Below the pieces are notes generated by a model. That model was not told the origin of the DNA, did no database searches, and saw only the letters and a program-made list of their open reading frames with translations. A stretch of 64,000 bases of DNA from Eledone cirrhosa (Eukaryota), in assembly GCA_964016885.1 (NCBI GenBank), contig OZ024758.1, positions 30,194,001 through 30,258,000 on the forward strand. Reading direction: 5' to 3'. The translations under genes and the position numbers were made by a program. Of the stretch, positions 9,036 to 63,000 are shown in pieces (positions within the stretch are counted from its first letter, which is position 1; every line of letters begins with the position of its first letter).

Positions 9036-9129
9036 AGTTTGTTATAAAAATAATGAAGAAATTTTTAAAAGACTTATTAATTAATATAACATTTTTTGTT
9101 ATTAGGCAAGTGTAAAAGGCGAAGGATTT

Positions 9130-30000: not shown

Positions 30001-33000
30001 TTATATATGTTACATTACATATGTTACATTATATATGTTACATTATATGTTACATTACATATGTTACATTATATATGTTACATTATATATGTTACATTAT
30101 ATATGTTACATTATATATGTTACATTATATATGTTACATTATATATGTTACATTACATATGTTACATTATATGTTACATTATATATGTTACATTACATAT
30201 GTTACATTACATATGTTACATTATATATGTTACATTATATATGTTACATTACATATGTTACATTATATATGTTACATTATGTTACATTATATGTTACATT
30301 ATATATGTTACATTATATATGTTACATTATATATGTTACATTACATATGTTACATTATATATGTTACATTATATATGTTACATTACATATGTTACATTAT
30401 ATATGTTACATTACATATGTTACATTATATATGTTACATTATATATGTTACATTACATGTTACATTACATATGTTACATTATATATGTTACATTACATAT
30501 GTTACATTATATATGTTACATTATATGTTACATTATATGTTACATTACATATGTTACATTATATATGTTACATTATATATGTTACATTACATATGTTACA
30601 TTATATATGTTACATTACATATGTTACATTATATATGTTACATTATATATGTTACATTATATATGTTACATTACATATGTTACATTATATATGTTACATT
30701 ATATGTTACATTACATATGTTACATTATATATGTTACATTATATATGTTACATTACATATGTTACATTATATATGTTACATTACATATGTTACATTATAT
30801 ATGTTACATTACATATGTTACATTATATATGTTACATTATATATGTTACATTATATATGTTACATTATATATGTTACATTATATATGTTACATTACATGT
30901 TACATTACACATGTTACATTACATATGTTACATTATGTTACATTATATATGTTACATTATATATGTTACATTATATGTTACATTATATATGTTACATTAC
31001 ATATGTTACATTATATATGTTACATTACATATGTTACATTATATGTTACATTATATATGTTACATTACATATGTTACATTACATATGTTACATTACATAT
31101 GTTACATTATATATGTTACATTACATATGTTACATTATATATGTTACATTACATATGTTACATTACATATGTTACATTATATATGTTACATTATATATGT
31201 TACATTACATATGTTACATTACATATGTTACATTATATATGTTACATTACATATGTTACATTACATATGTTACATTATATATGTTACATTACATATGTTA
31301 CATTACATATGTTACATTACATATGTTACATTATATATGTTACATTACATATGTTACATTACATATGTTACATAGGGCGGTGAATTGGCAGTAGCGGAAG
31401 AGGGTCGGATGCCATGCTTTCTAGCATAGTTACGTCCCTTTACGGTCTGAGTTCAAATCCAGCCGAGGTTAACTTTGCCTTTCATCCTTACGGGGTCAAT
31501 AAAATAAAGTACCAGTAATGCACTGGGTAATTGCTGGCCTTGTGCCAAAACGTAGAAACAATTATATGTTACATATATTACATAAATTATGTTTATAAAT
31601 AACAAAAAACTCAACTTAAAGTATTAAATTGTCTTAACCCATTAGTATTTAAACCAGCTGTATCTAGCCAGAATTCTCTCACCTCTTTCTGTTTAAACTG
31701 GCTGTAACTGGCTGCTCATACTTATGTTAAGGTATTGTTCTCAAAATGAATAATATCAAAATCTCATATATTTGATATTATGTGAGATAAAGCCTTTACC
31801 ATGAAAATACAATAGTATATATAGAGTAATGTAAATGTTATGTGAGGTAAAGCCTTTACTGTGAAGATACAATAGTATATATAGAGTATATATATGTTAT
31901 GTGAGATATTATGTGAGGTAAAGCCTTTACCATGAAAATACAATAGTATATATAGAGTAATGTAAATGTTATGTGAGGTAAAGCCTTTACTGTAAAAATA
32001 CAATAGTATATATAGAGTAATGTAAATATTATGTGAGGTAAAGCCTTTACCATGAAAATACAATAGTATATATAGAGTAATGTAAATGTTATGTGAGATA
32101 TTATGTGAGGTAAAGCCTTTACTGTAAAAATACAATAGTATATATAGAGTAATGTAAATGTTATGTGAGATACTATGTGAGGTAAAGCCTTTACTGTAAA
32201 AATACAATAGTATATATAGAGTAATGTAAATGTTATGTGAGATATTATGTGAGGTAAAGCCTTTACTGTGACAATACAATAGTATATATAGAGTAATGTA
32301 AATGTTATGTGAGATATTATGTGAGGTAAAGCCTTTACTGTAAAAATACAATAGTATATATAGAGTAATGTAAATGTTATGTGAGATATTATGTGAGGTA
32401 AAGCCTTTACTGTAAAAATACAATAGTATATATAGAGTAATGTAAATGTTATGTGAGATATTATGTGAGGTAAAGCCTTTACTGTAAAAATACAATAGTA
32501 TATATAGAGTAATGTAAATGTTATGTGAGGTAAAGTCTTTACTGTAAAAATACAATAGTATATATAGAGTAATGTAAATGTTATGTGAGATATTATGTGA
32601 GGTAAAGCCTTTACTGTGAAGATACAATAGTATATATAGAGTAATGTAAATGTTATGTGAGATATTATGTGAGGTAAAGCCTTTACTGTAAAAATACAAT
32701 AGTATATATAGAGTAATGTAAATGTTATGTGAGGTAAAGCCTTTACTGTAAAAATACAATAGTATATATAGAGTAATGTAAATGTTATGTGAGATATTAT
32801 GTGAGCTAAAGCCTTTACTGTGAAGATACAATAGTATATATAGAGTAATGTAAATGTTATGTGAGATATTATGTGAGGTAAAGCCTTTACTGTAAAAATA
32901 CAATAGTATATATAGAGTAATGTAAATGTTATGTGAGGTAAAGCCTTTACTGTAAAAATACAATAGTATATATAGAGTAATGTAAATGTTATGTGAGATA

Positions 33001-39000: not shown

Positions 39001-42000
39001 TTATATACATATAAACGTGCAAACACAGACACACTTACAAAAATACACACTCACAGACATACACTCACACAAATACACACACATTCACACAAATACACAT
39101 ACATTCACACATACACGCAAATACACACACATTCACACAAATACACATACATTCACACATACACTGACACATAGTGTAGCAAATGCAACGCCAGCTTTGC
39201 TATAGGTTTTTCACCATCCCATTCCTTCCTTTTACAGACACATACGAGGTGGGTCAGAAAAGTTCCCGGACTGATGTCACAAAAGATTTATTTCAAACCC
39301 AAACTTCACACTAAGAGTTTTCTCTTTCAAAGTAATCCCCCTGGAGTATGTAACTGTAATCTTAGCTCTCTGCAGCGATCAAACTTTTTTCTTCATAATT
39401 TTATATACATGTCCTCTGTTTCAGGTCGTCAAGCAACGAGCGCAGAGTAACAAACAAACTTGAAGTTTCTGGTACGGTTGGGGAAAACTCCGTCAGAAGC
39501 ACTGGGATTGCTGCTGCAAGTGTATGGAGATGAGACGATGTCACGCTCACCTGTTTTTGAGTGGGGCAAGATGACCCCAGGAGCGGAAGGCCCTCAACAG
39601 CCAGGACTGAGGTCAACGTTGAGCCCGTCAGGTAGATGGTGCGTAGCGATGGTCGGCTTACTGTTCGACTGATGGCAAATGAGCTGGGCATGAATTGGGA
39701 CAGTGTCTGGAAGATTCTCACAGAAGATTTGGACATGCGGAAAGTCTGCGTGAAGATGGTGCCAAAACGGCTGAACGATGACCAGAAGGGTCGACGCATG
39801 CAAGTGTGCCAGGACATCCTCGAGGGTCTTGAAAGCGAACCAGACTTGCTAGGGACAGTCATCACCGGTGATGAGTCATGGATCTTCGAGTACGACCTGG
39901 AGGGGACCCGTTTTGAAGACGTGGACGACATCAAAAAGGCTGTGACGACGGAACTGCGGAGGATCCTGGAAGAATCCTTCCAGGAGTGGATGTAAGCATG
40001 GCAGAAAAGGATGGAAAAGTACATTAGACTCCAGGGGGATTACTTTGAAGGAGAAAACTCTTAGTGCGAAGTTTGGGTTTGAAATAAATCTTTTGTGACA
40101 TCAGTCCTGGAACTTTTCTGACCCACCTCTTACATACTCAAAAACACACACATACACTCATTGTGTGCTCAAATTTATATATAGATTAAGATAACTGGGT
40201 TGCTACAGTTTGGCTGATTATAAATAAAACTTGTTTCACTCCTACTTCACAGTTAGCCTTAGCTAATAATTAAAATAAAAATTGATTTTTAACAGAAAAC
40301 TAAAGAAATCCTTGTAAAAGATCTCTCTCTCCAAATTTAAATATAAATCCTTTCAGGATAATATTTCTAACAAAATGGATGAACTATAAATTTCAGTTAA
40401 TTTTGAAACTACTTTATTTGCTGGCTTACTGGATAGCCCTTAATATAAGACACCCCTTTGTTTTACAAGGACATTTTGAGAAAAAAGAATTATAGTATAT
40501 TTCTTCATAAATTTATTAAAAATTATCAGTTTTTTTTCAGAAACTCTTAAATTCAACATCACTTGTAATAATTGTAATAATTACTGTATTAGTAGTACTA
40601 ATAGTAATAAAAACTACATTTTTTAACCATGATTGTCCTCACAAAAAAAGTGCATCCAATAAGTCAGTAAATATGGTAATCAATTTGTAAACTTACTAAC
40701 TTGTTCTTTATTAAATTGGCTTAACAAAAGGTTCTTAACCTGTTGACTGCCGCAAATATTTTACACAGCTACAGTTGCTGTGTTGACTACTGTGTATATT
40801 TTACACAGCTACAGCTGCTGTGTTGATTGCTGTGTATATTTTACACAGCTACAGTTGCTGTGTTGAGTACTGTGTATATTTTACACAGCTACAGTTGCTG
40901 TGTTGATTGCTGTGTATATTTTACACAGCTACAGTTGCTGTGTTGATTGCTGTGTATATTTTACACATCTCCAGTTGCTGTGTTGACTACTGTACACAGC
41001 TACAGCTGCTGTGTATATTTTACACAGCTACAGTTGCTGTGTTGATTGACACAAATATTTTACACAGCTACAGTTGCTGTGTTGATTGCTGTGTATATTT
41101 TACACAGCTACAGTTGCTGTGTTGATTACTGTGTATATTTTACACAGCTACAGTTGCTGTGTTGATTACTGTGTATATTTTACACAGCTACAGTTGCTGT
41201 GTTGATTGCTGTGTATATTTTACACAGCTACAGTTGGTGTGTTGACTACTGTACACAGCTACAGCTGCTGTGTTGATTGCTGTGTATATTTTACACAGCT
41301 ACAGTTGGTGTGTTGACTACTGTACACAGCTACAGCTGCTGTGTTGACTGCTGTGTATATTTTACACAGCTACAGTTGGTGTGTTGATTGACACAAATAT
41401 TTTACACAGCTACAGTTGCTGTGTTGACTACTGTGTATATTTTACACAGCTACAGTTGTTGTGTTGATTGCTGTGTATATTTTACACAGCTTCTGTTGCT
41501 GTGTTTACTGCTGTGTATATTTTACACAGCTACAGTTGCTGTGTTGACTGTTGTGTTTATTTTACACAGCTACAGTTGGTGCGTTGACTGCCGCAAATAT
41601 TTGACACATCTACAGTTGCTGTGTATATTTTACACAGCTACAGTTGCTGTGTTGATTGCTGTGTATTGTTTACACAGCTACAGTTGCTGTGTTGACTGCC
41701 GCAAATATTTGACACAGCTACAGTTGCTGTGTTGATTGCTGTGTATATTTTACACAGCTACAGTTGCTGTGTTAATTGCTGCGTATATTTTACACAGCTA
41801 CAGTTGCTGTGTTGATTGCTGTGTATATTTTACACAGCTACAGTTGCTGTGTTAATTGCTGCGTATATTTTACACAGCTACAGTTGCTGTGTTGATTGCT
41901 GTGTATTGTTTACACAGCTACAGTTGCTGTGTTGACTGCCGCAAATAATTGACACAGCTACAGTTGGTGCGTTGACTGCCGCAAATATTTTACACAGCTA

Positions 42001-45000
42001 CAGTTGCTGTGTTGACGGCTGTGTATATTTTACACAGCTACAGTTGCTGTGTTGACTGCCGCAAATATTTGACACAGCTACAGTTGCTGTGTTGACTGCT
42101 GTGTATATTTTACACAGCTACAGTTGCTGTGTTGACTGCTGTGTATATTTTACACAGCTACAGTTGCTGTGTTGACTGCTGTGTATATTTTACACAGCTA
42201 CAGTTGCTGTGTTGATTGCTGTGTATATTTTACACAGCTACAGTTGCTGTGTTGACTACTGTGTATATTTTACACAGCTACAGTTGCTGCATTGACTGGT
42301 GTGTATATTTTACACAGCTACAGTTGCTGTGTTGACTACTGTGTATATTTTACACAGCTACAGTTGCTGCATTGACTGCTGTGTATATTTTACACAGCTA
42401 CAGTTTTCTGCATTGACTACTGTGTATATTTTACACAGCTACAGTTGCTGTGTTGATTGCTGTGTATATTTTACACAGCTACAGTTGCTGTGTTGATTGC
42501 TGTGTATATTTTACACAGCTAGAGTTGCTGTGTTGACTGCTGTGTATATTTTACACAGCTTCAGTTGCTGTGTTGACTGCTGTGTATATTTTACACAGCT
42601 CCAGTTGCTGTGTTGACTACTGTGTATATTTTACACAGCTTCAGTTGCTGCATTGAGTACTGTGTATATTTTACACAGCTACAGTTGCTGTGTTGACTAC
42701 TGTGTATATTTTACACAGCTACAGTTGCTGTGTTGACTACTGTGTATATTTTACACAGCTACAGTTGCTGTGTTGACTGCTGTGTATATTTTACACAGCT
42801 ACAGTTGCTGTGCTGGGTTTTTTCCCCACTAAAATAACTATTTTTTTAAACAGACATTTATTAAGAACACATGTCTGAATGATTGAAAAACGTCACATCA
42901 ATGAACTAGTAACCCCATCTAGCTTTGAAGTTATGAACTGTTGGAAAGGAGTTCAAACATATTAGGATGAGTTATCTCATCTGTGGAACTGGAGTGTATA
43001 CATGTTAGGATGAGTTATCTCGTCTGTGGCACTGGATTGTATACATGTTAGGATGAGTTATCTCGTCTGTGGCACTGGATTGTATACATGTTAGGATGAG
43101 TTATCTCGTCTGTGCCACTGGAGTAGATACATGTTAGGATGAGTTATCTCGTCTGTGCCACTGGAGTAGATACATGTTAGGATGAGTTATCTCGTCTGTG
43201 GCACTGGAGTCTATACATGTTAGGATGAGTTATCTCGTCTGTGGCACTGGAGTGTATACATGTTAGGATGAGTTATCTCGTCTGTGGCACTGGAGTGTAT
43301 ACATGTTAGGATGAGTTATCTCGTCTGTGGCACTGGAGTGTATACATGTTAGGATGAGTTATCTCGTCTGTGACACTGCAGTCTATACATGTTAGGATGA
43401 GTTATCTCGTCTGTGGCACTGGAGTCTATACATGTTAGGATGAGTTATCTCGTCTGTGGCACTGGAGTGTATACATGTTAGGATGAGTTATCTCGTCTGT
43501 GGCACTGGAGTGTATACATGTTAGGATGAGTTATCTCGTCTGTGACACTGGAGTGTATACATGTTAGGATGAGTTATCTCGTCTGTGGCACTGGAGTCTA
43601 TACATGTTAGGATGAGTTATCTCGTCTGTGGCACTGGAGTGTATACATGTTAGGATGAGTTATCTCGTCTGTGACACTGGAGTAGATACATGTTAGGATG
43701 AGTTATCTCGTCTGTGGCACTGGAGTGTATACATGTTAGGATGAGTTATCTCGTCTGTGGCACTGGAGTGTATACATGTTAGGATGAGTTATCTCGTCTG
43801 TGACACTGGAATGTATACATGTTAGGATGAGTTATCTCGTCTGTGACACTGGAGTAGATACATGTTAGGATGAGTTATCTCATCTGTGGCACTGGAGTGT
43901 ATACATGTTAGGATGAGTTATCTCGTCTGTGGCACTGCAGTCTATACATGTTAGGATGAGTTATCTCGTCTGTGGCACTGGAGTGTATACATGTTAGGAT
44001 GAGTTATCTCGTCTGTGGCACTGGAGTGTATACATGTTAGGATGAGTTATCTCGTCTGTGGCACTGGAGTGTATACATGTTAGGATGAGTTATCTCGTCT
44101 GTGACACTGGAGTGTATACATGTTAGGATGAGTTATCTCGTCTGTGGCACTGGAGTCTATACATGTTAGGATGAGTTATCTCGTCTGTGGCACTGGAGTG
44201 TATACATGTTAGGATGAGTTATCTCGTCTGTGACACTGGAGTAGATACATGTTAGGATGAGTTATCTCGTCTGTGGCACTGGAGTGTATACATGTTAGGA
44301 TGAGTTATCTCGTCTGTGGCACTGGAGTGTATACATGTTAGGATGAGTTATCTCGTCTGTGACACTGGAATGTATACATGTTAGGATGAGTTATCTCGTC
44401 TGTGACACTGGAGTAGATACATGTTAGGATGAGTTATCTCATCTGTGGCACTGGAGTGTATACATGTTAGGATGAGTTATCTCGTCTGTGACACTGGAGT
44501 AGATACATGTTAGGATGAGTTATCTCGTCTGTGGCACTGGAGTGTATACATGTTAGGATGAGTTATCTCGTCTGTGGCACTGGAGTGTATACATGTTAGG
44601 ATGAGTTATCTCGTCTGTGACACTGGAATGTATACATGTTAGGATGAGTTATCTCGTCTGTGACACTGGAGTAGATACATGTTAGGATGAGTTATCTCGT
44701 CTGTGACACTGGAGTGTATACATGTTAGGGTGAGTTATCTTGTCTGTGGCACTGGAGTGTATACATGTTAGGATGAGTTATCTCGTCTGTGACACTGGAG
44801 TGTATACATGTTAGGATGAATTATCTCGTCTGTGCCACTGGAGTCTATACACGTTAGGATGAGTTATCTCGTCTGTGACACTGGAGTGTATACATGTTAG
44901 GATGAGTTATCTCATCTGTGGCACTGGAGTGTATACATGTTAGGATGAGTTATCTCGTCTGTGGCACTGCAGTCTATACATGTTAGGATGAGTTATCTCG

Positions 45001-48000
45001 TCTGTGACACTGGAGTGTATACATGTTAGGATGAGTTATCTCGTCTGTGGCACTGGAGTGTATACATGTTAGGATGAGTTATCTCGTCTGTGACACTGCA
45101 GTCTATACATGTTAGGATGAGTTATCTCGTCTGTGGCACTGGAGTGTATACATGTTAGGATGAGTTCTCTCGTCTGTGGCACTGGAGTGTATACATGTTA
45201 GGATGAGTTCTCTCGTCTGTGACACTGGAGTGTATACATGTTAGGATGAGTTATCTCGTCTGTGACACTGGAGTGTATACATGTTAGGATGAGTTATCTC
45301 GTCTGTGGCACTGGAGTGTATACATGTTAGGATGAGTTATCTCATCTGTGGCACTGGAGTGTATACCTGTTAGGATGAGTTATCTCATCTGTGGCACTGG
45401 AGTGTATACATGTTAGGATGAGTTATCTCGTCTGTGACACTGGAGTGTATACATTTTAGGATGAGTTCTCTCGTCTGTGGCTCTGAAGAGGTTAATTAAA
45501 ATTAAGATGGAATCTTTTAATTTGAATATAAACATTAAAATAATATAAGAGACTTTGTATCAGAGAACCTGAGGAGATCTCAGGTAAGTTTATATCAAAA
45601 GAGTTAAATAAATGTAATATATTTCATGTCTCTATTTTCAGGTATAATAGATTCTGTTTGCCGCTATATTCAGCATCAACTGAGGAACAATTTGATTCTT
45701 TCATTACATTTATGACGGTAAATGTTCCAAGAATTTTATTTCTGTGTTTATCCATTTCTGCCTTTTTTTATTTACTTACGGGGCTTTTATCATCATCATC
45801 ATCATCATCATCATCATTTTACGTCCGTTCTTCCCCGCTAGCATGGGTTAGACGGGTTGTCCTGTTGTGGGCAGTGTCCAGTCGGCTGACCTTGTCTTGC
45901 TCATACAGGAACTGATTCTGGCTTGATTTCTACAGCTGGATGCCCTTCCTAACACCGACCTCATTTACAGTGAGTGCTGGGTGCTTTTTCTTTTTCCGTG
46001 GTGCCTAAACATCCACTTTACAGTGTGGGCTGGGTGCTTTTTTGCCGTGGCACCTCCACGACTGCTTTACAGTGGAATGATATGGACCCCAGTCCCTATC
46101 ATCTCATTTCTACAGCTGAGTAAACTGGAGCAATGTGAAATAAAGTGTCTTGCTCAAGGAAACAACACATCACCCGGTCTGAGAATTGAACTCACAACCT
46201 TTCGATTGCAAGCCCAATGCTCTAACCACTAAGCCATATACAATAAATGACCGATAAGATTTTAAAGCCAGTACAATGCGGTAGAAATATATAAAAGGCA
46301 GAGGATGATCAATAAAACAAAACTAAGTAATGTATTTACCTAGTATATTTCAACACAATATTCCAGAGTTATTACATTTGAAAAGAGGGTTATAGCTTCT
46401 GAAACTTAGACATTTATTACATATATCACAATGCTTCGTATTAACTATACCAATTTAAAGATATAGTTTTCTTTTTTTTCTTCTTATATTTAAAACAGCC
46501 ACATGTGTTTGATGTAAAGCAGGCTTCCAGTCTTCCAGGTATATTCATAGGTAAAGACAAAAAGGATGAGCGATGTGCAACTGCAGTTGTTCTGTGTAGT
46601 CTTTTCTATGGCAATATCTTAGGATTTCCACATGAAGCCAAGTAAGTACTAGAAAGGATAGATAGATTTATATATAAAGTAATGTTGTAATGAAGGTGAC
46701 TGAGCACTAGAAACAATTGACTATAAAAGCTAAATATGGTAAGTATTTTAAGGTGAAATCTTGCCATAGCCAGTTTTGCTTTTTATCTCTCTGTGGCTGA
46801 TAAATAATTCCTTGTTTTGGGTGGCTGAGGCACTGCTCATTTTTCATTTTCTGATTTCTTCTTCCTTTTCTGTTCCCTTTAGTCATGTGTTTTGTTTTTA
46901 TTAGATACTGCTCAATTATTTTTTATATTATGTTAATTGTCTTTCATGACATTGAGAGTAACAACTTTATTTGGAGATATGATTCCTTGTTGTTGTTGAG
47001 ACTTTAGTCAGCCTTGATCAAGTAGAACCTTGATCAAAGGCCTGCTAACCATGACCATTTTATTTTTTCATCATTGTCATTATCATTACTACCATTTTGC
47101 ATCTGTTTTTCTAAGTTTAAAAGGATCAGACAAGTCTTTTCCAGCATAACTCTCTTCAACTTGAAGTGTTCCTTCATCAAAAATATTTCAACCATGACAA
47201 TCCTGTCATAATTTCAGACATAGAATACATAGAACCACATTATCTAATGTATCCTTTCTTTTTTAAAAGTGTAGAGTGTAATTTGAGGGAGATCTGATTG
47301 CTATTTTTAACAGTAAAGCAACCACTTAGAAACCCCTTTGTAAGCTCAATCTTTTAACCCTTTAGCATTTACATTGCTCTATATTTACTATTGTATTTTC
47401 GCGGTAAAGGCTTTATCCCGCATAATTATCTCACATAATATCAAAGATTTTGATATTTATTTTGAGAACAATATCTTAATGTTGATATGAGTGGACGGTT
47501 ATGGCCAGTTTGAACAGAAAGAGGTGAGAGAATACTGGCTGGTTTAAATGCAAAAGGGTTAAGTATTGGTCTATAGCAAAATGAATGAGTAATGTACTTT
47601 GCTGAAGGGTGTAATATACAGTTTATTTTAAATTTGAACATATGACTTACTGGGTTAATAGTTAATTCTCAGTTTTTTTGGCAATTCACTTTCAGCAATT
47701 CAGGAACCAAAATCAATCTATCAAAACCAATTTATGAAAAAGGAGAATTCCAAGTAATTCGAACTTTGACAAGTCAGCTACCAGATGGTTTGAAGCGGAA
47801 ACATCAGGTAAATGGTTACATCATCTGCTTTATATAAACATCATCATTGTAATCATTAATATTATTATTATTGGTAGAGGGTCGGATGCCATGCTTTGCA
47901 GCTTAGAGTTACGGCCCAAGATCAAATCCCGTCGAAGTTAATTTTTCCTTTCATCCTTACGGGGTCGATAAAATAAAGTACCAGTAATGCACTGGTGTTG

Positions 48001-51000
48001 ATTTAATCGACTTTCCCCTCCCCCAAAATTGCTGGCCTTGTGCCTAAAGTAGAACCAATTATTATGTTTTTTTTTTCAATAGTTTCACCATAGAAGCAAC
48101 AATATGATTCTTATTCATGTTCGGTTTTGTCTTTTGGGCATATGGTACTGTGTTTCTATGCCGTTTATTCGTCCATTTTTCCATGCTTGCATAGGTTGGG
48201 TGGGTCCTTCTCAGCACAGCGTCTCTCCACTCACTGCGTTTCTTCATCATCTATATATATTTGATCTGTGATGTACTGGTGTTCTGTCCAGGGGAGGAGT
48301 CTTGAACTCTCAGTTACTTCATGCCATGGAAACCGGGATAAGCACCAGCCTGGTCAGCATCTAAGCTTGAGACAGACTTTAGATATATTTGATCGACAAA
48401 ATCGTACCTCCCTCACTCACTGAGTGGGGTGGAACTCATCAAACTCAGCAAATATTTCTATTGTTCTTTCCATTGCTGATACTATTTACCAGTCATAACT
48501 CCTGGCAGAAAGAGCAATGTGAAATAAAGTGTCCTGTTCAAGGATATAACTCATTGCCTGATCCAAGAATTGTTAGATTTCAGTGTTTGAAAAAGTTTGG
48601 GAAATCCTGATCTAATGCAATAAAGAATTCAAGCCCCTACCAACTTCGCACAAAAAGATGCACTAATAAAAATAATCTTTATAACTGGAATATTGTGTCT
48701 GTTGCAGGTTGATGTTATCATTGACATGTGTTGTGGCGATGGAATCAATTTACGACATAATATATTACAAGCTAGAAATTTGTATTCTAAGCTGCGAGAA
48801 AACAATCAAGTAAGTTTTGTTTAAATTTTCAAAAAAAATTTCTAACATATATCTTCAGATTCCAACTAATAAAAGTTGTGATGCACAGACACCCGGGACA
48901 CCATTCCAATACCAGACACCCGGTACACCATTCCAATACCAGACACCCGATACACCATTCCAATACCAGACAACCAGCAAAACGTTAGATGGCACTATTT
49001 TTTCATGTTTGATTGATTGAGTGTCTATATTAATAATAATGAAAATTATTGTGTTCAGTGCTCAGGTGCACTACAACTCATCAAAGGTGCATGTATAGTA
49101 CATAGAATAATGTACAAAAGTCAAGAAAGTGAACAATATATGAGTCATGATATACACACAGACACACATGCATGCATGGAGGGGAGATATTATTTGTAGA
49201 GTTAGCAAATTTTGGGAAGCATGGAAGTTTTGAACGATGCAGTTACTCGACAGCTAAAACTGGTATTTCAGAAATGATAGCTGTTAAAAAAAACCTTAAT
49301 TATTATATTACTGCCATTTTATTTAGTTATTTTATTAACCCTTTAGCATTCACATTATTTTATATATACTATTATATCTTCATTTTAATGGCTTTACCTC
49401 ACATAATTATCTCACATAACATTTACATTACTCTATATATACTATTGTATTTTCACAGTAAAGGCTTTACCTCACATAATTATCTCACATAACATTTACA
49501 TTACTCTATATATACTATTGTATTTTCACAGTAAAGGCTTTACCTCACATAATTATCTCACATAACATTTACATTACTCTATATATACTATTGTATTTTC
49601 ACAGTAAAGGCTTTACCTCACATAATTATCTCACAAAACATTTACATTACTCTATATATACTATTATATTTTCACAGTAAAGGCTTTACCTCACATAATA
49701 TCTCACATAACATTTACATTACTCTATATATACTATTGTATTTTCATGGTAAAGGCTTTGAAATCAAAAGGACTGATCCTGAAATCTACAACTCTTTCCT
49801 ACAATCAGACCTGGACACAATGCAGCAATGGATCACAGACTGGCAACTGAAGCTGGCTGTGGACAAGTGTTACACCATGCATTCTGGGAGGAAATATCCA
49901 GCGTCCACATACTCCCTCCACAACACTGATATCAAGAAGTCCTCTTGTGAATGTGACCTGGGCATTACTGTCAGCAACGATTTGCGTTGGACAAAGCACG
50001 TCTCTAAGATTGTCAAGAAGGCCGAGGGTGTCTTGGCATCACTCAGCGAGACCTTTGTTAGCCGCTCTCCAGCCATCTATTTAAAGCTGTATACAGCTAT
50101 GGTACGACCACACTTGGAATTCTCATCATCAGTCTGGAACCCCTATCTTGCTCAGAACATTGACCTCCTGGAAACTGTTCAGAGACGTGCAACCAAGCGC
50201 ATACCCTCCATCAGACACCTACCATACTCTGAACGTCTTGCTTCCCTGGGCATGGATTCATTGAAGCTCCGACGTCTGGTAAACGCCCACAAAGTTATTA
50301 ACCATTTCGCCAACAACAACCCTGAGCACCTTTTTGATCTCCATGTGTCTAACACACGTGGACATGCCTACAAAGTCAGAAAACAGAACAGCTCCAATAA
50401 CTTTCAGAAACATTTTTTCACGCTTAGAGTTGCTGAAGCATGGAACAAACTGCCTGTGTCAGTTGTTAGCTGCCGAGACACTGCATCCTTTAAAAGCCTC
50501 ATGCTTCCCGAAATTCGCCAAAACTACGTCTGATGTCCCCCTTCCATACACATGCACATGTGTATATCATGACTCATGCACTGTTCATTTTTCTGACGTT
50601 TGTACTATACATACACTTTTGATGAGTTGTAGTGCACCTGAGCACTGTACACAATATTTTCATTATTATATTATTATAATTACCTCACATAATATCGAAT
50701 CTATGAGATTTTGAAAGTATTTATTTTGAGAACAATACCTTAACATCAGTATGAGTGACCAGTTACAGCCAGTTTCAACAGAAAGAGGTAGAGAATTCTA
50801 ACCGATTTTGGCCGGTTTGAACACTAAAGTAATAAAAAAAAAAAATGATCAGCTCTATTGAAAGTGAATCATGAGGTTGGTGGTGGGTGTATGCCTGTGG
50901 TTGTAATATTAATAGGATAAGGCCAGCAGATTGGCAGTATTTGTTCTGGCTCTTTATAGTCTGAACTCAAATCCTGCTGAGGGCAACTTTGCCTTTCATC

Positions 51001-54000
51001 CTCCTCAGGTTGATAAAATTAAGTACCAGTCATAGACGGGGGTCGATAGATTGGCTTTCCTCATTTCCTGAAATTGCTGGCCTTCTGCCAATATTAGAAA
51101 GAACAGTTATGATGTTGCTTGTTGTGGTATCAATAATTTTTTCTACATTAGGCACAAGGCCAGCAATTACCCAGTGCATTACTGGTACTTTATTTGTTGT
51201 GGTATCAATAATAAAGATGTTCACATGATGCTAATATAATAACCGTAATCATCATCATCACCGTTTAATGTCTATTTTGCCATATTTGCATGGGTTAAAT
51301 GGGTGACCAGAGACAAGTCTGGCCACTGGACACACCATACCTTGTTCAGACAGAACTGTATTTTGGCTGGGACTTTTACAGCTGGATGCCCTTCCTAACA
51401 CCAACCAGTGTCGAACTAATTATAAACTGTATACTGCTGCGACCTGTAGCCGTGCCTTTCCCTTCCTTTTCCATTTCCATACCACAAAAGACACTTGAAT
51501 TTTTTACATTTAAAATTATAGATCATATAAAATATTGGCAGGAATATAATTACAATATTAATGATCTTCATATGAGGCTAATATTTATATTGTTAATAAT
51601 TGTGATATTGATACATATATTGTTCATATGAGGCTAATAGCTGACTTCATCATCATCATCTAGTTTATGATTGTGCAGGACACAATTAATCCCTAAGTAG
51701 GGACAGTGCTCCTTAGCGTCTCGCTCCATGTGTTTCTGCCAGTCTCACTTGGGCCAGGCCAATTAATGTTAATGTAATGTTAATAATTATGATATCGATA
51801 CATATGATGTTTAACCCTTTAATGTTCAAACCGGCCAAAAACCGGCCAGAATTCTCTACCTCTTTCTGTTGAAACTGGCTGTAACTGCCCACTCATACTG
51901 ATGTTAAGGTATTGTTCTCAAAATAAATACTTTCAAAATCTCATAGATTCGATATTATGTGAGGTAAAACCTTTACCATGAAAATATAATAGTATATATA
52001 GAGTAATGTGAATGCTAAAGGGTTAATGTATTGCTAAAGTCTTCTAAATATTATTTAACCTCCACAAATAGATCCAAGAATCTCAGGTGGCAGCAAAGAA
52101 GGCACTTGAATATCTAGAGCGTTATTTCTACTTGATCTGTTTTAATGCATATCTTGCTGAACAGGTAGGTATATATTTTCTATCTTAATAATCAATAAAC
52201 ATTATTCCTTGTCTATATTTTTTCTATATATTTGTATGGGCTGAATTAAGAGTTTATCAATTTCAGGTTTGCGAGATACATTATTGTCAACAAAGGTTTG
52301 TGATGTGGCCCTTAAAAAGTATAATAATAATTTCTTGCATAAAAATCATGATCTCTTACAATGAGCCAATGAGAGAGCCTCTATGTGGTTGTTTAGCCAA
52401 TCACTAACTCTAATTTAGAAGATGTATGATCAAAGGCATTTCAGCCATGGCCTCCATGTCTTTATTGGGGTGTAAATGGTTACATTATCTAATGGGTCTT
52501 GTCTTTAGAAATAATTGTTTCTACTTTTGGCACAAGGCCAGCAATTATCCCAGTACATTACTGGTACTTTATTTTATCGACCCCGTAAGGATGAAAGGCA
52601 AAGTTAACCATGGCGCGATTTGAACTCAGAATGGCAAGGGGCATAACTCTATGCGTCAAAGCATAGTGTCCGACCCTCTACCGATACTGCCAATCCACCG
52701 CTCTTTAGATATAATGATAATGCATGACATGTGGGAGATTTGGTGTCTATTTCTAGCAGGTTTTGCCTCTATGTAGATGCTCTATTGGCAAGCTGCTGTT
52801 AGCGGTAGTTAAAGAGTGTTGATTCAGACACTTAGTTCATCTTTTCCCACCATCATATGGTTGGCATCATATGAATTATCTATGAGAATCATCATCATCA
52901 TCATCATTTTACGTCCGCTTTTCCCTGCTTGCAAGGGTGGGACGGGAACTGATTCTGGCTTGATTTCTACAGCTGGATGCCCTTTACAGTGAGTGCTGGG
53001 TGCTTTTTTGCCATGGCACCTCCACGACCACTTTGCAGTGGAATGATAGGGACCCCAGTCCCTATCATCTCATTTCTACAGCTGAGTAAACTGGAGCAAT
53101 GTGTCTTGTTCAAGGAAACAACACATCACCTGGTCTGAGAATTGAACTCACAACCTTTCGATTGCAAGGCCAATGCTCTAACCACTAAGCCATGTGCCTA
53201 AAAGACCATAACAGAATTTACAGTCCATGAGAGTCAAACATGAAGGACTCTGTCTATGTATTTCAACTAATTTTGAAAATAATCTACAATTTGAAGGGAT
53301 TTAATGAAATAACTTTCTCGTTATAAAGTTGGTGTTTAGAACATAACTTAACAAAAGTTTCTTGAATAAAATTATGATGGAAACATTTTTAAAATGGCCA
53401 GTTTTGTTTGTATTATAGAATCAGTGAAGGCATGTGGCTTTGTGGTTAGGGTATTCAGCTTATAATTGTAAGGTTGTGAGTTTGATTCCCAGCAGCACGT
53501 TTTGTCTTTGAGCAAGACACTTTATTTCACGTTGCTCCAATCCATTCAGCTGACAAAATTGAGTTGTACCTATAGTTTGAATGGCCAGCCTTGTCACATT
53601 CTGTGTCATGGTGAATCTCCCTGAGGACTACGTTATGGTTACACATGTCTGTGGAATGCTCAGCCACTTGCACGTTAAATTCATGAGCAGGTTGTTCCAT
53701 TGATTGGGTCAACTGGAACACTCACTGTCATAACTGACGGAGTCAGTCAGTTAAAATCAGGGCAGTTTCTGACAGTTTAGTATCAATAGAATTAGAAATC
53801 TTAGCAGTGGATTTATTCATAATTCTAAATTTTTTAATCATATATTTGGAAATCTATATAGTTGTTAGGCTGCCATTAATAAAATATAGCCAAGAGTTTA
53901 TAAAGTTGTCTTTACAATTCTCCACAATAACTATTACCAGTTCAATCTGACAACCATTGTTAATATTTCAGAGTAATCAAGGATTTTGTATCAATTTTTC

Positions 54001-57000
54001 CGAATGGATGTTGAAACACCCAAATCTTTATCGCATCCAAGTCCAACTGAATCTGTTTCCCAAGAAGGGCCAAGAGTTGCTGAAAGACTGCATACTGGTA
54101 TATTCTCTTGTTAAATAATATACACTGTGTTTGTTGAATAATATATTATGTATTGTGGACTATACTGTGAGTTGTTAGGTATATTGTTCATTGCATTGTA
54201 TGCTACTTGTTGTGATGTCTATTGTGGGATATGGTGAGTTGTATATTGCATGTTGTATGATATATTGTGGCTGTGGTGTACATTGTGTAATGTATGGTAT
54301 GTTGTGAGATATATGTTTGTTTCTAGTTTTGGCACAAGGCCAGCAATTTGAAGGGAAGTTGACTAAATTGATCCTCAGGGCATTACTGGTACTTTATTTT
54401 ATCGAGCCCGAAAGAAGGAAAGGCAAAGCTAACCTGGAAGGATGAAAGGTAAAGCTAACATTGGTGGGATTTGAACTCAGAATGTAAAGCCCCGTAACTA
54501 TATGCCACAAAGCATGTTGTCGGATGCTCTAATGATTCTGCCAATCCATATAATATATTGCATGGTATACTGTGTAATATATTTTATATTGTATGATACA
54601 TTGTTAGCTATATTGAGCATTGTTTGCTATATTATGAGTATAAATCTGTCACACATGAATGTATGCACACACACACTTTTCATTCTGAAAGACTCATGAA
54701 AGTCTGTGTTTATGTTTACAGCAGTTAAAAATGTTTACATTGTCTCCTTTTATGTACTATAACCTAGAAGTTTAACCCTTTACCATTTACATTACTCTAT
54801 ATATACTATTATATTTTCATGGTAAAGGCTTTACCTCACATAATTATCTCACATAATATCAAATCTATGAGATTTTGATATTATTTATTTTGAGAACAAT
54901 ACCTTAACATCAGTATGAGTGGCCAGTTACAGCCAGTTTGAACAGAAATAGGTGAGAGAATTCTGGCCGGATATGACCGGTTTAAATACTAAAGGGGTAA
55001 TAAATAGAGCTTGATAAAATAACTACCAGACTAAAATATCTACTGAGGTTAATTATAATCAACTAAACCCGTATATTAAGGCTCACATAGGACACTAGAA
55101 GATGGCTGGAAAATATATAAATAGAAATAATTTTTTTTATTATGTCAATGGTTTTTCATTATATTGTGAGAATATGTTTGTTTTCATGTTTAGTTTTTAA
55201 ATTGATATACTTTAAATAGATGAAAGGTATCATCTCTCATGAACCTTGATTCACAAACTTATTTGTTCCTGAAGGCTGTTCGTCATCTGAAATGTTTGAA
55301 AACTGAAACTAATTTTCCCATACGAAATGTTGAGAAAGAGACTGTGTATGAATGACAAACAGATATCACCATAGTCACTAACTACACAGCAAGTGTTGCT
55401 TTCCCTGCTGGTACTCCTAGTTTGTCAGCAACTGTTGTTGTCGGCTTGCGTGTTCGTTACTCAAGACACCATTTGTGAACCAAAATGTTTTATATTTGGA
55501 AAATTATTCGTGAACCGATTTGTTCACGATGAGAAGCATTTATGAACTGACGTTCCACTGTATTTATATACCATGAAATACATTGAGAAATAAGCCAAAC
55601 ACTGCTAATTATATCATAGTAGGATTTCATACTTTTCTATAAAATTGTATGTAGCCTTGTGTATGTAAAAAATCCCATATGTTTGAGCAGTATAACTTCT
55701 TCACCTATAATTATTTGCTTTCGTATTTGAAATCATATTACTTTATAACCATGAAATATATTATTGACAAAAGCAGAAAAGAGGAATTCTTTTATGTTAA
55801 TATTTAAACAGGATGAATTTCTTTGTAGATTTTCTTATAGAAGGAATAATTAGTTTTACAAGCTGGATGATATCACCATTAAATGATGAAGCATGAACAA
55901 AGCTTTTTGTTAGTCAGGCAGACTGAGGTATAGTCAGTGCCGGATTTAGGACAAATCAGGTCCTGTGCTAGTTAAGTTATGAGGCTCCTTACTTGGACCC
56001 TGAAGGAGGTAATTCATTGTAAAAAAAGTTTTGGCAGGAAGATGGGCCTTCCTGGCTTACGGAACCCTGTGCTTAAGCACACCTAAGCACAATGGTAAAT
56101 CCAGCATTGGGTATAGTTACAACATAGTCTATTGAAGGACAGTGATGGTATGGAGCCAGTAATTTCAATATCATAGTAACATTGTACAGGATTTTGATCA
56201 ATTAATAGTTTGAACCACTTAAAAGCTTTAATCTGTAAAACACTGTCGTAATGTTGTAAGTTTGATTCCCTAACACATTGTGTCTTTGAGTAAGATATTC
56301 TATATACTTATATATACAAGGGTCAGCTGAAAAGTTCATAAGCTGACCAAGACACTCTCATGGAATGACCAAATGAGGTTTATTTTTAAATATAGTTCCT
56401 AAAAAGAAACAATGCAGTTATTAACACGAAGAGTTGAAATTAATGCATGCAAGATTTCACAGCTCTAGCATCACTCCTTCATAGTCAGCCTACCCTCATA
56501 ATAACTTATATTAATTATATATGAAGTTTTAAGTTCACCTCTTCTCTAATTCAAGATTGAAGACACATTCAATCAGGAAGATGTTTCAAATTCACAACAA
56601 AGTTTGTGTGTTAATTTCCAAAAGGTCAGCAGTCATCTATCTGTCTATGGTATGGCGCAGCCTTCTTCTAAGGTAAGTTGACGAAGACTCTGTTGTTTTA
56701 ACTCTTTTGTTACCATATTACCTATGACAGACACTGCCTATAGTTTCGAAAATAATCCAGGGTTTGTTGGCATTTTATAACTTTCTCATTATTAAGCTGG
56801 AAGGTTTCTTACATAAAAATTATGATGGAAGGTTTTTAAATAAATGTAAACAGTTTCAAATAAAGAGTTTTGTATTGTAAACCAGGAGCTGTTTCAGGAA
56901 GTTTCATATCAAAAGAATTAATGTTTGATTAAACTCCTACTAAAGTAGCGTTATCTGAAGGCTATGACAATGCAAAACGGGTAAATTTTGGAAAAATTTA

Positions 57001-60000
57001 AGGAAACAAAGATGCTAGTGTGTTATCTGTTATTTTATTTACCTGTTCTAATATTTCGGGACTAAAATCCCTTCATCAGACAGCTGGAATAAGAAACAGG
57101 TTTGGAGATTTGTATATTTGTTGTTATAGGCTCACCACTGTACTGTAAGATGACATACATATAACAACAAAAGCACAAATCTCCCTTAACCTGTTGACTG
57201 TCGCATATATTTTATACAGCTACAGTTGCTGTGCCAGTTTTTTTTCAGTAAAATGACTATTTATTAACAACATAAGACTTCAACATCATTCAAACTATAT
57301 AGAAAAGCAGAAAAACATCTTACCATTCAAATCACATGCATACTATAAGAATAACAGTAATATAAAAAACTCAAATGATCGCCGGGAACAAAATCCATGC
57401 GTAATTTATTTGGTAAACGTATGTCATATCTGAATGATTGACAAACATTACATCAATAAACTAGTAACCCCATCTAGCTTTAAAGTTATGAACTTTTGGA
57501 AAGGAGTTTGTTATGTCCTTTAAAGTTATGAACTTTTGGGAACAAGTTTGTTATGTCCTTATGGATAAATGAGTACACTGCAACAGTGTAATAACAATAT
57601 AATCAAAACAAACGGCAGTAACCACATGTAATGGAATAATAGTCTTTTAAGAACCAACAATCCAACACACTAACTCGAACTGTGAACTTGAACTCCAACT
57701 TTGACTATCAACACATGAACTGTGGAACTAGTACCAACTTTGACTATCAACACACCAACTGTGGGACTAGTACCAACTTTGACTATCAACACACCAGCTG
57801 TGGAACTAGTACCAACTTTGACTATAAACATACCAGCTGTGGAACTAGTACCTACTTTGACTATCAACACACCAGCTGTGGAACTAGTACCAACTTTGAC
57901 TATCAACACACCAGCTGTGGAACTAGTACCAACTTTGACTATCAACATACCAGCTGTGGAACTAGTACCAACTTTGACTATCAACACACCAACTGTGGAA
58001 CTAGTACCAACTTTGACTATCAACACACCAGCTGTGGAACTAGTACCAACTTTGACTATCAACATACCAGCTGTGGAACTAGTACCAACTTTGACTATCA
58101 ACACACCAGCTGTGGAACTAGTACCAACTTTGACTATCAACACACCAGCTGTGGAACTAGTGCCAACTTTGACTATCAACACACCAGCTGTGGAACTAGT
58201 ACCAACTTTGACTATCAACACATGAACTGTGGAACTAGTACCAACTTTGACTATCAACACACCAGCTGTGGAACTAGTACCAACTTTGACTATCAACACA
58301 TGAACTGTGGAACTAGTACCAACTTTGACTATCAACACACGAACTGTGGAACCAGTACCAACTTTGACTATCAACACACCAACTGTGGAACTATTACCTA
58401 CTTTGACTATCAACATACCAACTGTGGAACCAGTACCAACGTTGACTATCAACACACAAACTGTGGAACTAGTACCAACTTTGACTATCAACACACGAAC
58501 TGTGGAACTAGTACCAGCTTTGACTATCAACATATGAATTGTGGAACTAGTACCAACTTTGACTATCAACACACAAACTGTGGAACTAGTTCCAACTTTG
58601 ACTATCAACACACGAACTGTGGAACTAGTTCCAACTTTGACTATCAACACACAAACTGTGGAACTAGTAACGACTTTGACTATCAACACATGAACTGTGG
58701 AACTAGTACCAACTTTGACTATCAACACACGAACTGTGGAACTAGTTCCAACTTTGACTATCAACACACTAACTGTGGAACTAGTTCCAACTTTGACTAT
58801 CAACACACCAGCTGTGGAACTAGTACCAACTTTGACTATCAACACATGAACTGTGGAACTAGTACCAACTTTGACTATCAACATACCAGCTGTGGAACTA
58901 GTAAAAACTTTGACTATCAACACACCAACTGTGAAACTAGTACCAACTTTGACTATCAACATACCAGCTGTGGAACTAGTACCAACTTTGACTATCAACA
59001 TATCAACTGTGGAACTAGTACCAACTTTGACTATCAACACACGAACTGTGGAACTAGTACCAACTTTGACTATCAACACACCAACTGTGGAACTAGTACC
59101 AACTTTGACTATCAACATATCAACTGTGGAACTAGTTCCAACTTTGACTATCAACATATCAACTGTGGAACTAGTACCAACTTTGACTATCAACATATGA
59201 ACTGTGGAACTAGTTCCAACTTTGACTATCAACACACCAACTGTGGAACTAGTTCCAACTTTGACTATCAACACACCAACTTTGGAACTAGTACCAACTT
59301 TGACTATCAACATATGAACTGTGGAACTAGTTCCAACTTTGACTATCAACACACCAACTTTGGAACTAGTACCAACTTTGACTATCAACACACACACTGT
59401 GGAACTAGTTCCAACTTTGACTATCAACACACCAACTTTGGAACTAGTACCAACTTTGACTATCAACATATGAATTGTGGAACTAGTACCAACTTTGACT
59501 ATCAACATACCAGCTGTGGAACTAGTACCAACCTTGACTATCAACACACCAACTGTGGAACTAGTACCAACTTTGACTATCAACATACCAGCTGTGGAAC
59601 TAGTAACAACTTTGACTATCAACACATGAACTGTGGAACTAGTACCAACTTTGACTATCAACACACGAACTGTGGAACTAGTTCCAACTTTGACTATCAA
59701 CACACCAACTTTGGAACTAGTACCAACTTTGACTATCAACATATGAACTGTGGAACTAGTTCCAACTTTGACTATCAACACACCAACTTTGGAACTAGTA
59801 CCAACTTTGACTATCAACACACACACTGTGGAACTAGTTCCAACTTTGACTATCAACACACCAACTTTGGAACTAGTACCAACTTTGACTATCAACATAT
59901 GAATTGTGGAACTAGTACCAACTTTGACTATCAACATACCAGCTGTGGAACTAGTACCAACCTTGACTATCAACACACCAACTGTGGAACTAGTACCAAC

Positions 60001-63000
60001 TTTGACTATCAACATACCAGCTGTGGAACTAGTACCAACTTTGACTATCAACACATGAACTGTGGAACTAGTACCAACTTTGACTATCAACACACGAACT
60101 GTGGAACTAGTACCAACTTTGACTATCAACACATGAACTGTGGAACTAGTACCAACTTTGACTATCAACACACCAATTGTGGAACTAGTACCAACTTTGA
60201 CTATCAACACACCAACTGTGGAACTAGTAACAACTTTGACTATCAACACATGAACTGTGGAACTAGTACCAACTTTGACTATCAACACACGAACTGTGGA
60301 ACTAGTACCAACTTTGACTATCAACACACCAACTTTGGAACTAGTAACAACTTTGACTATCAACACACGAACTGTGGAACTAGTACCAACTTTGACTATC
60401 AACACACAAACTGTGGAACCAGTACCAACTTTGACTATCAACACACGAACTGTGGAACTAGTACCAGCTTTGACTATCAACAGACCAGCTGTGGAACTAG
60501 TACCAACTTTGACTATCAACACACAAACTGTGGAACTAGTTCCAACTTTGACTATCAACACACGAACTGTGGAACTAGTTCCAACTTTGACTATCAACAC
60601 ACGAACTGTGGAACTAGTACCGACTTTGACTATCAACACACAAACTGTGGAACCAGTACCAACTTTGACTATCAACACATGAACTGTGGAACTAGTTCCA
60701 ACTTTGACTATCAACATATGAACTGTGGAACTAGTTCCAACTTTGACTATCAACATATGAACTGTGGAACTAGTTCCAACTTTGACTATCAACACACAAA
60801 CTGTGGAACTAGTAACAACTTTGACTATCAACACATGAACTGTGGAACTAGTACCAACTTTGACTATCAACACACGAACTGTGGAACTAATTCCAACTTT
60901 GACTATCAACACACCAGCTGTGGAACTAGTAACAACTTTGACTATCAACACATGAACTGTGGAACTAGTACCAACTTTGACTATCAACACACCAACTTTG
61001 GAACTAGTACCAACTTTGACTATCAACACACCAACTGTGGAACTAGTACCAACTTTGACTATCAACACACAAACTGTGGAACTAGTACCAGCTTTGACTA
61101 TCAACATATCAACTGTGGAACTAGTACCAACTTTGACTATCAACAGACCAGCTGTGGAACTAGTACCAACTTTGACTATCAACACATGAACTGTGGAACT
61201 AGTACCAACTTTGACTATCAACACACAAACTGTGGAACTAGTACCAACTTTGACTATCAACACACCAACTTTGGAACTAGTACCAACTTTGACTATCAAC
61301 ACACCAACTTTGGAACTAGTACCAACTTGCCCACTTACTCAGGCCACTACTATTTATATGTAGTTTTACAGTCCATTCTTGCCAGGGGGTGTTGTACTCT
61401 CACACAACAGAGTTCATAACTTTGAAGTTATGAACTGTTGGAAACAAGTTCAAACATGTTAGGACAAGTTGTCTCGTCTGTGGCACTGAAGAGGTTAAAC
61501 TTCTTGGCCTTATGCCTGAATAACAAGCCATTATGACTTTACCAAATATAATAAAGGTTTTTGATTTTGGCACAAAGCCAACAATTTTAGAGGGGGCGGG
61601 GGTAAGTCGATTAAATTGACCCCAGTGTGCTACTGGTACTTATTTTATCAACCCCGGGATAAAAGGCAAAGTTAACCTCAGCAGAATTTGAACTAAGAAT
61701 GTAAAGAGACGTAATTATAGACCACAAAGCATGTTATCTGATGCTCCACCAATAATGTCAATCCACTGCCTTTCTCCAAAATATAATACAAAAACTATAT
61801 TGATTGGTTTAAACTCTTCAGTGCCCTACACAAGATAACTCACCCTAACGTCATTTTACTGAAAAAACAACCCAACACAGCAACTTTAGCTGTGTAAAAT
61901 ATATGTGGCAGTCAACAGGTTAATGTGGCAGTCAACAGGTTAATGTAGCAGTCAACAGGTTAATGTGGCAGTCAACAGGTTAATGTGGCAGTCAAAAGGT
62001 TAATGTGGCAGTCAACAGGTTAATGTAGCAGTCAACAGGTTAATGTGGCAGTCAACAGGTTAATGTGGCAGTCAACAGGTTAATGTAGCAGTCAACAGGT
62101 TAATGTAGCAGTCAACAGGTTAATGTGGCAGTCAACAGGTTAATGTAGCAGTCAACAGGTTAATGTGGCAGTCAACAGGTTAATGTAGCAGTCAACAGGT
62201 TAATGTGGCAGTCAACAGGTTAATGTGGCAGTCAACAGGTTAATGTGGCAGTCAACAGGTTAATGTGGCAGTCAACAGGTTAATGTGACAGTCAACAGGT
62301 TAATGTGGCAGTCAACAGGTTAATAATCTTTTAATCTTTCCTATTTTTCCTTTCCTATTTTTCAGTCTGTTCGTAAGATCATGGACCATTTGATGAATGG
62401 TAAATCGTATTCCCATGTTGTCTTTATCAATCTACGTAATGACATAAGTATTGAAGCTCAGGGTAAACTGTTTTACATGAGTAATGTCTCTGATGCGAAT
62501 AAACAACCAGTCTATTTTCATGTAAGTTTGAAACATTTTCATTGCTTTTCAATTCTCCTTCTCTCTCTTTCTCTTTTAGTTTTTTTGAAATCCAGTTTAG
62601 AATAGGTACATCATATCTCTGCATGTTGTAAGGGGTGACTAAAAGAGTTAGCACCTAAAGTGGCATCTGGCCATAAAACAGTGCCTTGAAAAGGACCTCA
62701 TGATGAGGCTCAGAGTAAATGCTGTAAATTAGTTGGTATTAGGAAGGAAATTCAGCCATAGAAATCATGTCAAAAATGGAACATATGAGGAAAAGATGGC
62801 TGACCAGTCAGAACAGCCTGTTTAACCCTTTAACATCTACATTACTCTATATTTACTATTATATTTTCACAGTAAACACTTTATTTCATATAATTATCTC
62901 ATATAATATCAAATCTATGAGATTTTGATATTATTTATTTTGATAACAATACCTTAAGGTCAGTATGAGTGGTTAGTTACAGCTGGTTTGAACAGAAAGA

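Follow-up and report, generated by a model that had tools for sequence, protein, structure and literature searches.

What turns the ends of a short transposon into kilobases of tandem repeat? This question is raised by a stretch of 64,000 nucleotides of the octopod Eledone cirrhosa (contig OZ024758.1, positions 30,194,001 to 30,258,000), referred to below as the window, in which three copies of one MITE (miniature inverted-repeat transposable element), here called family A, lie together with four long minisatellites in introns of a paladin-like gene. The initial annotation of this DNA saw in them a candidate satellite factory peculiar to the family, with all three copies expanded by what was suggested to be an active, transposase-driven process. 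Our analysis leads to a different view. Three of the arrays are built from the ends of family A itself, and arrays of the same kind are found at the ends of other element families. We consider it probable, though well short of certain, that the arrays arose as short duplications close to element ends and were then enlarged by the minisatellite turnover of the host, the fourth array belonging to a separate, likely long terminal repeat (LTR)-derived insert.

Identity of the family A element

Family A is recognised by its target site and its ends (Table 1). TTAA is present on both sides of all three copies, and the terminal inverted repeats (TIRs), 13 bp in length, are imperfect, with 9 of 13 bases matched in every copy, as had been described. 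Common to the three copies are a left end of ~50-75 bp and a right end of ~40-85 bp, at 79-94% identity; the right terminus of copy 3 starts with A in place of C. TIR-like matches with three or fewer mismatches are absent from the window outside these copies. Reads and contigs from 4 of 12 listed runs were compared with a 661-bp test stretch of the locus, and the eight listed pieces from one compared organism (organism A) all end at 61496-61499, in or at the TTAA; no empty site was seen. The family is multicopy in two species, its ends standing at thousands-fold summed contig depth against ~10-20 on the unique flank. It is short and noncoding, with ~110-400 bp of its own sequence and no recognisable coding frame.

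The assignment to piggyBac, made in the initial annotation from the TTAA duplication and the CC-starting TIRs, holds in part. The TTAA site agrees with it, and the TIR length fits the ~12-19 bp of the piggyBac/TTAA criterion, but the terminal motif C[C/A/T][C/A/T][T/G/A][T/A/G][T/G/A] (PMC5381638) is matched at the left end only (CCTGTT, 6/6), the right end, CCTCTT, being off at position 4. A stricter motif, CC[C/T]T (PMC2872659), is mismatched by both ends; the TIRs of the coral elements CMITE IV-VI are likewise imperfect (PMC2872659). Kolobok/T2-MITE elements also use TTAA, with RR (AGGRR) termini (PMC6004289); membership of that group was rejected, the termini of family A being CC and not RR. 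From these sequence features, family A is a TTAA MITE, probably of the piggyBac type. No transposase or reverse transcriptase was called in the window, where ten long or retrotransposon-like frames yielded two Pfam matches, both far below cut-off. Rfam over 52400-62400 gave two sub-threshold matches, neither in family A, and both matches of a metagenome scan with a 20-nt left-end pattern were chance matches in contigs of 70% GC. The family is old, because its single-copy blocks differ between copies at 7/84, 4/44 and 9/35 bases and because large internal deletions have left the copies with ~240, ~400 and ~110 bp of their own sequence.

Three arrays built from the ends

Arrays were detected with Tandem Repeats Finder, which returned the places and sizes of the initial annotation. 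The amplification of both ends of copy 1, and of the TTAA plus TIR unit of copy 3, is thereby confirmed. The units are pieces of 20-43 bp that lie at the termini or within 6 bp of them. Copies 1 and 3 are internally shortened and end-amplified, and copy 2 is neither; its own sequence carries no long array, and the claim that every copy had expanded is reduced to two of three.

The arrays have an internal history, for their units form ordered variants with repeated multi-unit block duplications. In the 43-mer, the two units at the edges depart from the majority unit at 3 of 35 bases, as none of the 57 inner units does. The 20-mer array is homogeneous (four unit types, 2%). It was formed in place, because its unit includes the target site and matches the flank base, the array is homogeneous and the far end of copy 3 has lost its terminal C. 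The terminal base is reported to be required for piggyBac excision (PMC5381638). The majority unit of the 40-mer holds a derived hairpin, GCTGTGTA/TACACAGC, and the derived dimer is structured (z -4.4). The block change in this unit (40741-42812) yields a perfect 8-bp stem with the next segment, and resembles the template-switch correction of a quasi-palindrome; units of native type are interspersed.

A nested insert carries the fourth array

The four arrays first reported are all real, and three of them do derive from the family's own ends. The 39-bp unit, however, which had been read as internal to the MITE, sits in an insert nested within copy 2. The insert has TG...CA termini, starting with TGTTATG and ending with CACAACA, which are inverted-identical at six of seven bases (TGTTATG against TGTTGTG). 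It is flanked on both sides by GAGTT (57504-57508 and 61410-61414), a coincidence with a chance of ~0.002 per given pair of sites. A TATA-like motif, TATAAATAG, is found on its minus strand, and neither AATAAA nor ATTAAA occurs there. TG...CA ends with short inverted repeats, a target-site duplication of 4-6 bp, and TATA and polyadenylation signals are features of a solo LTR. Judged by its termini and flanks, the insert is likely LTR-derived, having the layout of a solo LTR of ~260 bp. When it is removed in silico, a MITE is left with two ~36-bp tandem copies, against one in copy 1; this native internal dimer of copy 2 was split by the insert. A ~36-bp tandem unit that starts at the palindrome at 61411 is seen in reads from other loci, possibly as a dimer only.

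The insert and family A part company in other samples. The inner part of the insert is deep in a further organism, D (890-3,320), where the family A ends have zero depth and the 39-mer stands at 113-169, and organism A contains family A with zero depth on the insert. Contig pieces stop at the insert edge, one from the same species at 61409 and two from organism D at 61408. In the window's species the 39-mer reaches 163-fold the contig depth, and 13-fold the raw reads, of the adjacent insert sequence. This pattern marks the 39-mer as a repeat that derives from the insert and was amplified in this lineage, and the score of family A itself becomes three arrays in two of three copies. The 40-bp duplication at the edge of the insert was formed in place, because it spans the insertion junction.

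The distribution of the insert (57509-61409) is patchy. It occurs as a repeat in organism D as well as in the window's species and is absent, at 85% likeness, from organism A, which otherwise seems closer to the window's species, having both family A and the unique flank in common with it. Loss or horizontal transfer is possible.

Arrays at the ends of other element families

The window contains further element families that serve as controls. Family B is a second TTAA MITE, of ~230 bp, with nine copies and a fragment, and two of these ten bear arrays. The 72-mer and 73-mer arrays have one common junction. Within the 73-mer, inner units are 2/73 off the majority of the family, against 9/85 for the edge unit; inner units of the 72-mer, being out of phase, were left out of this comparison. 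A SINE-like family (short interspersed nuclear element, a label based on A/B-box motifs) has 22 pieces, of which one carries an array from its own sequence and copies are adjoined by two further arrays. Repeat K, which is labelled LINE-like (long interspersed nuclear element) from minus-strand frames that resemble the C-terminus of a LINE endonuclease, and which has no Pfam match, bears arrays in both of its copies (5224-6500 and 34555-35640), at differing segments. Because the copies of repeat K show this pattern, the amplification of different segments in different copies is not peculiar to family A. With arrays on family B, SINE-like and LINE-like elements, and with most right ends of family A seemingly single-copy (see below), the notion of a family-specific satellite factory was abandoned.

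Family B also bears on the possibility that the arrays are pure hitch-hikers, in other words that a few array-bearing subfamilies arose once and spread by transposition or gene conversion, with little seeding in place. The two arrays (31838-33132 and 49347-49759) are 16 kb apart in opposite orientation, and their inner units differ by 2/73, against 13.6% for the copies that host them, which suggests an array-bearing common ancestor or conversion between copies. In keeping with such spread, joints of the 43-mer and 36-mer recur in a second species, the 39-mer is as deep, relative to its neighbours, as if most copies of the insert bore it, and Xmix/Xstir and miDNA4, discussed below, are precedents. 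The 20-mer and the junction duplication were nevertheless formed in place, and array families vary between copies, so that we regard hitch-hiking as the whole explanation as improbable.

Another pair of family B copies (50676-50836 and 51811-52026), 1 kb apart and in opposite orientation, is 5.7% divergent against 9-19% for other pairs, which suggests a local hop or conversion. Two arrays adjoin SINE-like copies. One, with a 14-bp unit (in 29506-31373), has its start 1 bp beyond one end of a copy; the other, GGT-rich, 3.9 kb long (12298-16208) and likely an expanded tail, stops within ~5-15 bp of the opposite end of a second copy.

Position of the arrays within elements

Long arrays, 13 in number at a threshold of at least 300 bp, occupy ~30% of the window, which shrinks from 64,000 to 44,528 bp when they are collapsed. 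Degenerate dinucleotide tracts at 9-427 and 2962-3565, and every array below 300 bp, were excluded before counting; the degenerate GGT-rich tract at 12298-16208 is among the 13 arrays and outside the nine that are element-derived. All statistics are post hoc and come from this single window, and the element termini of the curated test were judged by hand.

In the curated test, an edge lies no more than 8 bp from an element end in seven of the nine element-derived arrays, where 0.9 would be expected (p~1e-6). The figure is 5/7 when one array is counted per copy or junction type (p=7e-5), and 3/5 with family A left out (p=0.003). An automated test placed 8 of 13 arrays within 15 bp of a repeat-block edge, against 2.2 expected, and 6 of 10 against 1.7 without family A; since the automated edges depend on the collapsing of arrays, the curated version was made. 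In the two TTAA families, each of the five own-sequence arrays is at most 8 bp from an end. We take the end bias to be real, and it may be stronger in TTAA MITEs.

It could be argued that arrays fell at random in a repeat-rich region and that three happened to land in family A. The family was picked post hoc, and array units are found within dispersed repeats in 7 of 13 cases against 4.9 expected (p=0.18). Array-bearing copies number 2/3 in family A and 2/10 in family B (p=0.20, not significant); the comparison with four other families pooled, 2/3 against 5/50, is marginal (p=0.04). What chance does not account for is where in the elements the arrays lie, namely the 7/9 and 5/7 at ends, and we hold this explanation to be very unlikely.

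Arrays and family A copies beyond the locus

Restriction-site-associated DNA (RAD) reads from another sample, labelled as the same species, contain the joints at which an array goes back to the start of its unit. The 39-mer joint is present in 48 raw RAD reads with 15 starts and the 43-mer joint in seven reads with seven starts; both are also found in contigs, including one organism-A contig for the 43-mer. Joints of the 36-mer occur in 12 contigs, 14 reads and four organism-A contigs, and part of these may be the native dimer. No 40-mer or 20-mer junction was present among the 15 of 79 joints listed for the 661-bp stretch. No read or contig that spans an array was seen among the runs compared, which leaves the assembled array lengths unconfirmed and is what an assembly artefact would give. 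However, junctions of the 39-mer and 43-mer in raw reads of another sample, and the ordered variant blocks, speak for real arrays, and an artefact is given next to no weight.

Depth ratios between the window's species and organism A are ~1.1 over the left TIR and 1.6-1.9 over the 43-mer and right TIR, and rise to 5.2 over the 40-mer core and 5.5 over the palindromic 36-mer, which suggests that the 40-mer and the 36-mer, a fifth unit, are over-represented in the window's species. In raw reads the 40-mer core and the 36-mer reach no more than 1.5-2 times the depth of their neighbours; for the right end against the terminus the factor is 1.3-1.4 (depth ~60, falling to ~45). Among the longest pieces, all eight listed from organism A and three from the same species cross the right module without repeat, which suggests that most family A copies have unexpanded right ends. 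From these ratios and repeat-free pieces, arrays were seeded at other family A sites too, most copies being apparently unexpanded.

Proposed seeding and growth of the arrays

If the arrays were seeded as end-proximal duplications and enlarged by the host, the seeds would be supplied by slippage or microhomology-mediated repair. The overhang of the 39-mer is 7 bp long, that of the junction duplication 3 bp, and those of the 40-mer and 20-mer are 2 bp; PMC6947457 gives a model in which microhomology provides the seed and slippage or conversion comes after. Some seeds would have an age close to that of the family and would probably have been carried by the transposon (43-mer, family B 72/73-mer, 36-bp dimer), and others would have formed in place (20-mer, insert-junction duplication). 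The edge units of the 43-mer, the family B 73-mer units, the common family B junction and the 43-mer joint in organism A are consistent with seeds that date from the active period of the family and in part travelled with it or were moved by conversion. Growth to 20-90 units would follow by repeated slippage, unequal exchange and conversion, as the order of the variants suggests. Such growth would affect DNA of every kind hereabouts, and its strength seems greater in this species than in a relative. The MITE would then be a frequent substrate and not the engine.

Several observations weigh against this account. Of 26 TTAA-MITE ends, 5 carry arrays, against 2 of the 80 ends that three other families contribute (Fisher p=0.009); the contrast is 5/26 against 4/80 (p=0.04) when arrays that merely abut an element are counted. 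The junctions of the 43-mer, 72-mer and 73-mer have no clear microhomology, nor a clear overhang in the 43-mer. Copy 1 is amplified at both ends, and end arrays occur only in shortened copies, as abortive gap repair predicts. The native end segments of family A show no unusual tendency to form hairpins (z -0.9 to 0), and thus structure does not explain the end bias. The read evidence is limited in kind as well: contig depth is not copy number, for which reason the comparison was confined to depth ratios of the window's species to organism A, and RAD reads cover only the neighbourhood of cut sites, the arrays containing sites for several enzymes.

Hairpins as a general cause were tried and rejected, as only 3 of 18 segments are strongly structured and the native family A ends are not among them; the three are the 36-mer palindrome, the 39-mer region and a segment in the middle of family B, which is arrayless here.

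Much of this would suit a mechanism in which the TTAA ends were cut and the gap was repaired, abortively, by a synthesis-dependent route from a sister copy, leaving end duplications together with internal deletions, the host enlarging the arrays later. Transposase-linked repair could have made the first duplications: besides the excess at TTAA ends and the 5/5 own-sequence arrays close to them, copies 1 and 3 are both shortened and end-amplified where copy 2 is neither, and the 43-mer seed is seemingly as old as the insertion. Against it, however, arrays built from ends are also present on SINE-like and LINE-like elements and at the junction of the insert, excision by piggyBac is precise (PMC5381638), the homogeneous 20-mer lies in a copy without a terminal C at its other end, and no transposase was found in the window. 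We therefore judge this mechanism rather unlikely. An active transposase-driven process, as first proposed, is unsupported, given the divergence and indels between copies, the failure to find a transposase in the window and the many growth steps by block duplication. The explanations considered here are not wholly exclusive.

Relation to known systems

Family A is a further case of MITE-borne tandem repeats, known from Xmix/Xstir, miDNA4 and coral CMITE, and not a new system. Xenopus Xmix/Xstir (T2-MITE, Kolobok) is, like family A, a TTAA MITE with an amplified segment that rides the element; Xmix has AGGRR ends and one internal segment amplified (PMC6004289, PMC12628747), in contrast to the CC ends and several terminal segments of family A. 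The coral CMITE elements are also short TTAA MITEs with imperfect, CC-starting TIRs; they are linked to piggyBac-like transposons, their tandem arrays are attributed to slippage, and the left TIR of family VI holds an ...ACTGCC motif (PMC2872659), as does family A. Coral arrays repeat whole elements (PMC2872659), whereas those of family A repeat end pieces of 20-43 bp, 21-59 times, and no autonomous partner for family A was found in the DNA examined. The Tc1/mariner MITE miDNA4 of Xenopus tropicalis carries a single unit or a variable array, for the growth of which microhomologies are invoked, but its satellite is one captured internally and is not made of element ends (PMC12628747, PMC9659126). 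Minisatellites in Alu, B1 and MaLR LTR elements are explained by the Haber-Louis model, in which short direct repeats bound a unit within the transposable element and slippage or conversion follows (PMC6947457, PMC9659126); the 39-mer in the LTR-like insert, with its 7-bp overhang, is a case of this type.

No report of family A, or of end-biased octopus minisatellites, was found in a literature search with subscription papers, Repbase/Dfam and supplements largely outside its scope, and the supplementary repeat tables of octopus papers may list family A already. Simple repeats make up 14.7% in one octopus paper (PMC6279123), and a coleoid repeat survey dropped the simple and unclassified ("unknown") repeat classes (PMC8967140).

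Host gene and further features of the window

The window consists of AT-rich intron DNA of an animal. An exon of 52 residues matches the paladin of Octopus bimaculoides at 80% identity (the sole match among five candidates tried), and tblastn with that protein places exons of the gene from ~20953 to 62521 on the plus strand; none of four exon pieces matched a Pfam profile. Copy 1 fills 4,753 of the 7,540 bp of one intron (63%), and copies 2 and 3 together 4,812 of the 5,693 bp of a second (85%). The 20-bp array stops 41 bp ahead of a splice acceptor of the gene (gap 62324-62365), where the polypyrimidine tract in front of the exon at 62366 is a 14-bp duplication (62336-62363).

A small repeat, family D, occurs at 45495-45607, from the right TTAA of copy 1, at 56813-56921, 270 bp before copy 2, and at 23075-23184. 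Family C has 16 pieces and no array built from it, one piece being adjoined by an array at 3741-4164; a sub-threshold Rfam tRNA match within it (53135-53192, 28.1 bits against a cut-off of 29) suggests a tRNA-derived SINE. A long inverted repeat of ~390 bp (4485-4876, 77% self-match) is probably MITE-like.

Table 1. Elements, arrays and gene features of the window (positions within the 64,000-nucleotide stretch)
Feature	Position	Strand	Remarks
Family A MITE copy 1	40739..45491	+	~240 bp with arrays cut to one unit; internally shorter than copy 2; paladin-like intron
Target-site TTAA left of copy 1	40735..40738		
Target-site TTAA right of copy 1	45492..45495		
40-bp array, x52.7	40741..42812	+	Starts 2 bp inside copy 1 left end; 2-bp TG overhang
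43-bp array, x58.8	42957..45485	+	Ends 6 bp inside copy 1 right end
Family A MITE copy 2	57190..61494	+	~400 bp own sequence, ends single-copy; TTAA 57186-57189, 61495-61498
Nested solo-LTR-like insert	57509..61409	-	~260 bp without extra units; inside copy 2
39-bp array, x93.2	57695..61328	+	Inside LTR-like insert, 81 bp from its end; overhang CCAACTT, 7 bp
40-bp tandem duplication, 2.1 copies	57478..57560	+	Spans MITE/insert junction; 3-bp overhang CTT
Near-perfect palindrome	61411..61436	.	Opens conserved right-end module; hairpin z=-4.1
Family A MITE copy 3	61813..62319	-	~110 bp core; TTAA 61809-61812, 62320-62323
20-bp array, x21.1	61903..62324	-	TTAA + left TIR; 2-bp AT overhang drawing on flank base
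Family B copy with 72-bp array	31634..33144	-	Array ends 8 bp inside element end
Family B copy with 73-bp array	49335..50836	+	Array starts 8 bp inside same end as 72-bp array; ~900-bp insertion splits copy
45-bp array at SINE-like repeat end	8069..9036	+	Built from element end
70-bp array at LINE-like repeat K end	34562..35588	+	Terminal
69-bp internal array in other K copy	5452-6347		
Host paladin-like gene exon	62366..62521	+	Other exon matches ~20953 to 56672

Significance

Simple and unknown repeats abound in cephalopod genomes, and the window shows a source of arrays with units of 14-79 bp, which is mostly the ends of transposons. Edge units that can be dated, and sister copies without expansion, provide built-in controls. 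The lead that emerges is the end bias across element classes. As a wider and still doubtful proposal, the long minisatellites of this octopod lineage may nucleate preferentially in the outer ~10 bp at the ends of mobile elements, whatever their class, and above all at TTAA-MITE ends, through short tandem duplications left by repair at insertion or excision junctions and grown to kilobases in a lineage-specific manner. If this is true, minisatellites would be born mainly at transposon junctions, and these junctions would be an important force behind the size of introns and of the genome.

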